Both the position numbers and the translations under genes were made by a program. DNA of 63,432 nt, filler included, from Hausera hauseri (Eukaryota), in assembly GCA_046269625.1 (NCBI GenBank). It is 11 parts of 11 records of this genome, joined end to end, with 100 filler letters (N's around TTAATTAATTAA, not from the genome) between each part and the next. Parts side by side here need not be neighbours in the genome. Positions count along the whole stretch, not along the records: positions 5,851 to 11,211 come from JBJURY010271286.1; 10 more parts are not named here. The stretch is one strand, 5' to 3'. The notes beneath the pieces were generated by a model. That model did not search any database. It saw only the letters and a list, made by a program, of their open reading frames with translations, and was not told the DNA's origin. Each line of letters opens with the position of its first letter. Positions within the stretch are counted from its first letter, which is position 1. This document shows, in pieces, positions 6,519-8,560 of this stretch.

Positions 6519-6887
6519 CAAATCACGCATTATCTGAATGTTATCTTTATCCATTTTCAATGCTCTCAAATAACATTTCATAGCTTCATCGTACTTCCTA
6601 CCCGACTTTTGAACTAACCCATAAACGTGCCAACAAATTGAACTATTGATATCATTACGAATTCCACTTTTGACGAGGTCATAGGCTTCATCTCGTTTAC
6701 CCATACAACTTAAAATAATTCCTTTCATTGCTAACGTTTCGCCGTGTTCCGAAAATTTTGGATTTGATAAAATTTGCTTGGTGAATTTTAAACCGTTTTT
6801 AAATTATTTCTGTTCGTAGCACTTCAGTATGCTTTTGAACAAGGATAATTCCTTGTGAGGCAAGTTATTTCGAAGTTGGTTATTCAT
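6519..6887 (-). pseudogene. NAA15: NatA auxiliary subunit NAA15/16, intronless 5' fragment
   Basis: MNNQ..LPHKELSLFKSILKCYEQK*FKNGLKFTKQILSNPKFSEHGETLAMKG..CWHVYGL..DKDNIQIMRDL is colinear with the NAA15 N-terminus; one in-frame TAA at 6804-6806; truncated after about 123 codons. Confidence 0.9.
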
Positions 6888-7019
6888 AGCACATGCAAAT
6901 TTCAATAAATAGAAACGTAGTGTTAAATAGGTGAGCGTACAATATGTCGGTAATCTGTTTATTAAATATCTCGCACAAGATTTGTTATCGTCGGGTACTG
7001 GAAATTTAGGAATATTTAC

Positions 7020-7800
7020 AGAAAATATAAATACATCATCAATCGACTTACATTCGTAAGTGACAATTTGGTTTCCGAACTCATCGAGAAGTATTTTCAA
7101 CACGGTATTGCCCCGTAAAAATCTGAGTATTGCCGATAAGAACGAAATCTTTCGGTGGGACAATGTATTATTAACCGATGAAACAAATTCCAACCTTTTC
7201 AATTTCATCGGTAACAACTTTCCAGCTTCTTTCACTGGTGCACTCTCTTCTAAAATCGTTACATTAGCCCCTAAGCTATTCAAATGCAGAGCAACAGCAA
7301 TACCAGGCAAATTAGCTCCAACGAGAATAAAATTTTTTGGCTGATTACAAAACACATCAACCGGATAATTGGTGAAACCATAATTAATATATCCTTTAAT
7401 TCCATAAATCCGAAGGACAACCGGTACAATATGTCAAAAGCGCTACTCTAATTAAGCCTGAACTAAAAATCATCGCTGTATCAGCCATTCATTGACAAAT
7501 CGTTTTGTATCAGTAGCCCAAAGCAACAATACGACATTGGGCAACCCCATAAAAATACGCGTTAAATTCTCTTGAACAGCCGGGAAACAATCGTGTTCCC
7601 AACGGTCCAAACCTGCTGGATAAATGGCACCAACGGTAATGTCCGTGGAAATGTTGGTTTGGAACGGACTAAAATTGACCATGAATACTTGACAGGGTTT
7701 AGGCAAATAAAAATCAATTACCGTTGCTTTTGGTGTTAATCCAATGATATCCAAGAGATGCGGATTAAAAATATTCAGATATGGTATGGCTTCCAATGTA
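7020..7800 (-). pseudogene. Lysine-specific demethylase KDM1B/LSD2-like fragment (SWIRM + start of FAD amine-oxidase domain)
   Basis: DIIGLTP..FMGLPNVVLLLW..GLIRV..KGYINYG followed by Rossmann-like ILVGANLPGIAVALHLNSLGANVTILEE, the LSD-family order; stop and frameshifts near 7430-7470; no introns seen. Confidence 0.7.
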
Positions 7801-8177
7801 GGTTGGTATTTTATGGAATCAAAAAATGCTCTGGGTTATTTTTGATAATTAATACTCTTTTATCTTCGATGATATCACACGGATTTTTACTGTGCGGTAA
7901 CACAACAGAACAGTGAAACGTATCCATTTCAGTCGGACTGAGCAAAAGATTGTGACTGACCTGCCGCCATCTACCACAATAGGATCAGACATATCAATAC
8001 GGTAACAAACAACTCTCGATGTAACCCAACGGAGTTGGATTTTCAAAACATTGAGTCAACCAACTCTTTCCGATTCAGAATTTTCGGACTGCTGATTTCG
8101 TTTGAAAAAAAACATTTGAAATCGATTTAGACAAACTGAATAAATATGCTCACCAATTGACAAATGATTCCGTTTGA

Positions 8178-8560
8178 AATTCCTTTCGAATGCAAATGAG
8201 CAATTGCTGAACTAATTTCAGGGATATAAAAGCATGCTTGATTTTCCACCAGCGTCCCTTCACGCTCTAGATATGTAAATAATTCTACACCAGGACAATA
8301 CGTTAGAACAATGTAAAGATTTGCTTGACTTCGGAACGCATAATGCAATGTAACAAGGAATGGATCTGATTATTTCTAATATGATTCGTTCGGCTTTCGT
8401 ATGAGCGGTATCTTTTCCGTTACAAATGATTCGCGCTTTCTTTAATACTTTCATTGCGTACAATTTATTCAAATCTTGGCCACACGCAACTTTTCTCACA
8501 AGAAAAACTTTCCCATTCTCTATCAGAGTCATCAAACATTGTATAATTTTCCAAAGATAA
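8178..8560 (-). pseudogene. RPS6KB: p70 ribosomal S6 kinase, kinase N-lobe fragment
   Basis: [34 protein letters not shown] (frameshift) [35 protein letters not shown]; homology ends just before YRDLKPEN; intronless. Confidence 0.88.

Follow-up and report, generated by a model that had tools for sequence, protein, structure and literature searches.

The co-oriented host-gene pieces in contig JBJURY010271286.1 (C271286) of Hausera hauseri are probably spliced host-mRNA cargo inside an LTR retrotransposon with the order 5'-LTR-PBS-cargo-gag-pol-PPT-3'-LTR, captured by template switching of reverse transcriptase (RT) and kept mainly when the reading frame stayed open into gag. The contig occupies positions 5851-11211 of the window, by which we mean the whole 63,432-nucleotide stretch of joined parts that was analysed, and it comes from an 869-Mb animal assembly (GCA_046269625.1) of 909,086 contigs. 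All features of the train and the element lie on the minus strand, where three broken, co-oriented coding pieces follow one another in tandem: S6 kinase (S6K), then KDM1B, then NAA15. In the order of transcription the features are:

9629..9723, minus strand: further LTR cargo, common with another LTR (90.6% to L081, 750-850 nt behind the L081 head)
8875..9431, minus strand: LTR (U3) cargo, the spliced 3' part of a host gene whose identity is not assigned (parents L027 and L031)
8583..8874, minus strand: AT-rich 3' tail of the 5' LTR, with AATAAA region and the LTR end near 8583
8569..8579, minus strand: primer binding site (PBS), presumably of tRNA-Leu type, shortened, directly ahead of S6K
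8178..8568, minus strand: S6 kinase piece that covers the 5' end and the N-lobe of the kinase; it is frameshifted and has lost an internal part
6991..8177, minus strand: KDM1B/LSD2 piece (SWIRM, start of amine oxidase), frameshifted, 3' boundary approximate
6888..6990, minus strand: probable NAA15 5' UTR, stop-free in the KDM1B/NAA15 frame
6519..6887, minus strand: NAA15 N-terminal piece, ATG at 6887, stop at 6806-6804, residues 1 to about 122
6368..6518, minus strand: 5' extension of the gag frame, of which the first 150 nt are present (the earlier "leader"); the copy ends at 6368

The best PDB match of the S6K piece is p70S6K1 (E 1.5e-17), with RSK/MSK behind at 4e-13, and longer intronless S6K copies are present at three other loci (L016, L064 and L184). 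The KDM1B piece of the window gave no KDM1 structure match by itself; in the sister copy L005 the match to KDM1B (2.5e-6) is better than that to KDM1A (1e-4), and the window piece includes what we take to be the zinc-finger region. The NAA15 piece has a database match with an E value of 6e-45 and corresponds, with a deletion, to a copy that exceeds it by about 1 kb; the interval between it and KDM1B is probably the NAA15 5' UTR (the parental 5' end was not recovered). Searches of Pfam and the Atlas with the U3 cargo gave no match that would identify its gene. The original prediction that the KDM1 piece runs in one open frame into the NAA15 ATG is borne out by the frame 7433-6807, which is open across that ATG as far as the stop at 6806-6804. 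Its companion claim, that the frame is also open where NAA15 breaks, is right only beyond this stop: the frame 6803-6216 is open from NAA15 into the GC-rich stretch that follows, but the stop precedes it. Two of ten copies (the window and L055) have the stop. In the window the copy breaks off at 6368, as far as the contig sequence shows, and is a dead relic.

The carrier is a truncated Ty3/Gypsy LTR retrotransposon with the host pieces inside it. A search with window 6520-8600 returned 61 matches, many at 82-94%, and in such sister copies the GC-rich stretch runs for about 336 nt to the gag ATG and is followed by gag, protease, RT, RNase H, integrase, a polypurine tract (PPT) and the 3' LTR, the whole from the GC-rich stretch to the purine tract and the LTR head (which begins TGTGG) measuring about 5.2 kb. 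Their gag-pol region, about 4.9 kb after the cargo, is decayed yet retained, and has Pfam matches to RVT_1, RT_RNaseH, Integrase_H2C2 and rve in Gypsy order; the window copy is without that part. Gag and protease were assigned by motifs, neither having a Pfam match. The relatives of the RT are Gypsy-type Pol proteins, the named ones including Schistosoma proteins at 55-57%.

The LTRs start with TG behind the PPT, often end in TA and not CA, and measure 1.2-2.2 kb in the eight that have both ends; each has a conserved head of about 120 nt, then copy-specific sequence and an AT-rich tail at the end. The head is preceded either by the purine tract or by unrelated flank, as expected of the 5' end of an LTR. 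A search for the conserved head in the window found no match, and where it would be expected lies a different dispersed repeat (window 9759-11201, 68-86% to several contigs). Copies that match window 8540-8900 split at about 8583, solo and 3' LTRs passing into unrelated flank and 5' LTRs into the PBS. The PBS motif lies immediately after the LTR tail in eight loci, with a longer form in L062 and L198, and the full 18-mer occurs 324 times genome-wide (control, 0). We assume that it is of the tRNA-Leu type; a tRNA gene was sought with ARAGORN at 12 loci and with Rfam in L198, and neither detected one. Target site duplications of 5 bp, one exact and one matching at 4/5 positions, flank two cargo-filled LTRs that are inserted in gag of other copies; four other solo-like LTRs inspected had none, and none of the fetched contigs holds both LTRs of one element. 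L198 also contains a mini-element (2146-3601) in which an LTR and an extended PBS are followed directly by a PPT and a second LTR head; the PBS extension resembles most of the primer tRNA copied in reverse, without confirmation by ARAGORN or Rfam.

The order tail-PBS-cargo-GC-rich stretch is directly visible in the window, and the same order with gag following is found in L053, L054 and L062. As the PBS at 8579-8569 lies ahead of S6K, this order places the train between the PBS and gag. The original prediction had the train end in front of a PBS-like leader behind NAA15. That geometry was misread, since TGG is present at that point in only 4/61 copies and TGGCGCC likewise in 4/61, and the real PBS is upstream of the train, which is inside the element; the earlier reading also missed the open frame running on into gag in the sister copies. 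Other identities considered for the GC-rich stretch were rejected. As an HDV-like ribozyme or other known RNA it has no Rfam match and a folding z of -0.54; it is neither a hAT end nor part of the LTR, as every copy that is long enough shows it passing into gag, and its candidates in the genome number at least 232-427 (427 vs 2164 for the LTR head); and its similarity to the LTR head, of which it might have been a duplicate, is not significant (85/1000 shuffles).

The window is one member of a family in which cargo is abundant and changes from copy to copy. About 30 different host pieces, almost all in sense, are observed in sister copies, both in the LTR and between PBS and gag. By our own count about 25 genes lie ahead of gag (tubulin, Med14, ORC3, dynein, RecQ, PRP8, MCM, POLG, ZNFX1 and an ABC transporter among them) and six in LTRs (caspase-like, P4-ATPase, DEAD helicase, CAAX protease, RRM and meckelin); some unanchored genes in this count may be flank. 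We surveyed 95 cargo regions (60 ahead of gag and 35 in LTRs; 135 kb), a biased sample because the loci were chosen through the window's own cargo and landmarks. In these regions stop-free runs of at least 150 codons number 66 in sense and 4 in antisense, and among all 376 segments of at least 75 amino acids Pfam matches occur in 66/247 sense vs 2/129 antisense segments; the two antisense matches come from far upstream, in regions that no PBS anchors, and perhaps do not belong to the element. The cargo is nested: pieces near gag are common to copies and upstream pieces differ. The original prediction had proposed to look for other copies of the same cargo order; with 88-92% identity, KDM1B-NAA15-extension is found again in L002, L003, L004 and L005.

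Through the GC-rich stretch the gag frame is extended on its 5' side. Measured to the first conserved ATG, this extension is most often 336 nt long (9/51 copies), and all nine copies of that length, one of them from a divergent subfamily, are open from the cargo to the gag ATG, seven of the nine without a Met; the extension is in phase today in only 18/51 copies. Both subfamilies have the same extension phase, and between them dN/dS of the extension is 0.53 when it is read in the gag frame, against 0.96 and 0.71 for the two alternative frames; gag proper has 0.18. The longest upstream open run is in the gag frame in 37/48 copies and 12/15 clusters. Stops in the extension number 0 shared vs 10 private (p 0.006), and its 19 shared frameshifts are, in our view, repeated slips at homopolymers. 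With its good context, the conserved ATG 112 codons downstream could serve as an independent start of Gag.

A frame bias is also observed directly at the joints. Five types of deletion joint, common to 11, 6, 3, 2 and 2 copies, are all in frame, and the long NAA15 joint is in frame in 13/17 copies; out of frame are one joint common to L093 and L116 and one single-copy deletion (L010). In a reference-free, pair-level count of joints in the 5' cargo, for which 109/268 copy-level breakpoints were callable, 20/25 events are in frame on both sides. The null for such joints, the same-phase share of words common to eight host coding sequences, is 0.37-0.45, and against 0.45 the observed share has p 4e-4, with events that are not fully independent. 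An earlier count by clusters (21/31 in frame) is a rough figure only; several of its clusters are not new joints, the reference having ended or the same gene continuing (the window, L005, L018, the L049 group, L172 and the L186-group repeats), and L062/L066 are out of frame in it and in frame in the extension-length and open-run analyses. Relative to other changes, shared changes in the 5' cargo include about half as many disabling ones as private changes do (14/330 vs 100/1101, p 0.007). The same holds for gag+RT (32/621 vs 108/1071, p 0.0009) but not for the U3 cargo (8/38 vs 35/170, p 1), a small control with one pair event, partly unverified frames and some overlap of reference pieces. With stops only, the shared/private comparison is not significant (cargo p 0.28, gag+RT p 0.41). 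The amino acids of the cargo are weakly constrained: dN/dS against the parents is 0.89 for KDM1B cargo and 0.49 and 0.31 for NAA15, and the shared missense/silent ratio is 2.55 in cargo vs 1.08 in gag+RT.

The idea that the frame is fixed from the PBS onward found no support, the joint between PBS and first cargo not being frame-locked. In the window the S6K-KDM1B joint is one base out of frame (a single copy), and the form in L017 has 158 open codons from ahead of the S6K ATG into KDM1B.

The same element and the same captures could instead have produced a passive passenger, that is, cargo that remains a 5' untranslated stretch while Gag starts at its own downstream ATG, the frame bias arising from codon-phased microhomology, few founders and an RNA-stability filter. 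We consider this unlikely, although several observations speak for it: the conserved downstream ATG, the dN/dS of the KDM1B cargo and the shared missense/silent ratio of the cargo, the unlocked PBS joint, the stop common to the window and L055, and a phase bias of shared words that reaches 0.45. The observed in-frame share nevertheless exceeds 0.45, the 112 codons before the ATG show constraint at the codon level with no shared and ten private stops, and two subfamilies hold the same phase, all of which count against it.

That unrelated repeats were joined by the assembler, which the original prediction had named as the main alternative, is very improbable as the cause of the cargo joints. The assembly is in 909,086 contigs, among which the related C181083 is very likely a misjoin, and coverage by reads is low immediately left of 6368; but the KDM1B-NAA15-extension order recurs in L002-L005, S6K precedes KDM1B in both L017 and L019, and two read contigs of run X1 (perhaps the source sample) bridge joints. 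One, 388 nt long, covers 7899-8286 without any difference and spans the S6K-KDM1B joint at 8178; the other (8487-8731) spans LTR, PBS and S6K. The 2223-codon dynein-NAA15 ORF of C181083 (L173) was rejected as a real chimeric gene and is probably a misjoin of the parental dynein gene and a cargo copy, because its dynein part resembles the cargo copies more closely than they resemble one another, no second parent turned up, and one read contig departs at the joint with normal dynein continuation; its joint is counted once in the cluster and pair-level counts because other copies share it. We note that run X2, labelled as another organism, contains near-identical pieces of 8713-9507 at a depth of about 3.

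Where parental genes were found, the cargo lacks their introns; these parents sit on separate short contigs. The KDM1B parent (L011) has GT-AG introns of 45 and 56 nt, mapping to about 7859 and 7689 of the window, plus a third acceptor, and all are absent in the window at about 90% identity. The NAA15 parent is on L180 and L165, and one of its acceptor boundaries falls inside the window NAA15 piece; an NAA15 intron of 643 nt is absent in the sister copy L018, and two 47-nt introns are absent in L154 (C234705), an older processed NAA15 copy that extends past the usual family joint. In the U3 cargo (9431-8875) two 42-nt GT-AG introns and a third donor/acceptor pair of L027/L031 are missing. Overall, seven introns are precisely absent by comparison with five parental contigs. 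For S6K the assembly yielded intronless copies and no parent; of the three truncated, one-strand, intron-free pieces originally proposed, all three are broken and co-oriented, and intron loss is seen for KDM1B and in part for NAA15. The accompanying check, location of parental genes with introns, succeeded for KDM1B, NAA15 and the U3 cargo and found none for S6K. Three cargo-internal joints have microsimilarity, of 4 nt, 8/9 nt and about 6 nt (both parents are known for few joints, and these figures carry no significance test).

Lost introns, sense cargo, microsimilarity at three joints and an LTR-retrotransposon carrier together favor the serial mRNA capture by RT template switching that had been proposed at the outset. 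Its DNA-level counterpart, capture by a Pack-TIR element or Helitron, or segmental duplication of adjacent intronless genes, in either case beside an unrelated Gypsy element, can be dismissed as the least probable reading: some host exons are very long (a dynein exon exceeds 6 kb), so that intron absence alone is not diagnostic, and the S6K parent was not found, but parents that carry precisely the introns missing from the cargo largely refute it, and cargo bounds set by LTR head, tail, PBS and gag and the 66 vs 2 sense bias of Pfam matches also count against it. There are two intron-bearing NAA15 genes in the assembly with a common intron position, a conserved long-intron gene (L161 C271776, L166 C232952 and L167 C317478) and a divergent one (L165 C93688 and L180 C185370); the latter, which has mostly 45-47 nt introns, is the parent of the cargo (94% identical) and is at most 50% identical to database proteins over most of the query. 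The two genes are either from two organisms in one assembly or paralogues.

For capture followed by selection for an open frame we envisage the following course. RT would jump onto co-packaged mRNAs and back by way of short microsimilarity; jumps that land in U3 or ahead of gag would spare pol, so that such copies keep gag-pol and multiply, and cargo would be overwritten from its 5' side to give the nested series. A capture between PBS and gag that is out of frame would put a long closed upstream ORF before gag, with less Gag synthesis or nonsense-mediated decay as the likely result, and the copy would be lost. The survivors would encode cargo and Gag in one frame, with a start codon from the captured mRNA, and the amino-acid content of the cargo would matter little as long as the frame is open. 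The product predicted from these sequences is a translated cargo-Gag fusion protein. It is possible, and we put this forward tentatively, that the Gag of this high-copy Gypsy family has no working start of its own and forms the C-terminal part of a translation product that otherwise consists of a shifting mosaic of captured host protein pieces. If so, the element would be a self-replicating, frame-selecting exon shuffler that samples dozens of host mRNAs into one ORF and fills its LTRs as well.

Retroviral gag-onc transduction also captures spliced host mRNA and fuses it in frame to Gag, as may have happened here; its host part, unlike this cargo, sits on the C-terminal side, in most cases takes the place of viral genes and is under selection for a function of its own. 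LTR-mediated retroposition in animals, in which template switching captures partial mRNAs, has been described by Tan et al. 2016 (PMC5131818), and the cases in the accessible text of that paper are like ours in having partial intron-free mRNA pieces in LTR elements, microsimilarity at joints, at least two genes per retrocopy and later multiplication. There, however, part of the element ORFs is replaced by cargo, every case is one event with few copies, and "in frame" refers to the parental protein, whereas here gag-pol is kept with cargo in U3 and the PBS-gag interval, cargo turns over across a large family, and the frame is phased to gag (PMC5131818); loss of a 5' part of the ancestral gag to cargo is conceivable here too. 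Maize Bs1 similarly carries three unlinked host genes in one LTR element with a hybrid ORF, but it has one fixed cargo set with one piece out of frame and is, as described in the text available, without family-wide turnover, LTR cargo or N-terminal gag fusion (PMC5131818, PMC13317346, PMC7264820). The planarian giant Gypsy elements Burro/GYPSM1 likewise have host-like domains in frame in a Gypsy polyprotein; the accessible account gives these as fixed, conserved and downstream of an N-terminal Gag, whereas here the pieces are recent, variable and upstream of Gag (PMC6431247). Extra ORFs in LTR elements, as far as the cited texts go, lie mostly behind pol (PMC6431247, PMC13317346, PMC7264820). 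With the CsRn1 clade of Ty3/Gypsy our element has in common the Gag motif CX2HX9CX3C and the RT-RH-IN order (PMC2582038). The motif is intact in 16/27 gag-site matches, 13 further pattern matches in another region having been dropped. CsRn1 as given in the same partial source has a Trp PBS, 4-bp target site duplications and LTRs of about 0.4 kb, and ours has a Leu-type PBS, duplications of 5 bp at the two LTRs that showed any, and cargo-filled LTRs of 1.2-2.2 kb (PMC2582038); since the Trp PBS is absent, we do not class the element as a CsRn1 member in spite of the motif. Capture of several mRNAs by one LTR element is already known from the accessible accounts of animals and maize Bs1, and what appears to be new is cargo ahead of gag, in the gag frame and family-wide. 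Our literature search, which covered few subscription papers, found no report of cargo fused ahead of gag or of family-wide LTR cargo.

The LTR-mediated retrocopies known so far arise rarely and disable the element that carries them, whereas here there are many nested captures in one family, so that template-switch rate and length, choice of mRNA and microhomology become measurable from one genome. Should the element's own dependence on Gag, or on a stable RNA, act as the filter on frame, in-frame chimeric ORFs would arise without benefit to the host, and this would be a concrete answer to how exon shuffling passes the one-in-three frame barrier. Genomes of this kind are likely to contain many false paralogues of regulatory genes and misjoined gene models.

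Other families with a full Leu-type PBS are represented by L238, L239, L242, L243 and L246, in which by eye a gag-like frame runs from the PBS without an early ATG; that of L246 resembles the gag extension studied here. Elsewhere in the window, decayed Gypsy gag/pol pieces lie on the plus strand at 3303-5750 and 12958-14493, in other parts than that of the train, and the piece at 3303-5750 resembles by eye a gag piece behind the NAA15 parent in L165. Positions 5861-6109 (plus strand) have no Pfam match; by motif they resemble the C-terminus of the reverse transcriptase of an RTE-type LINE. Window 16820-20341 is a long tetranucleotide-like simple repeat with many spurious ORFs.
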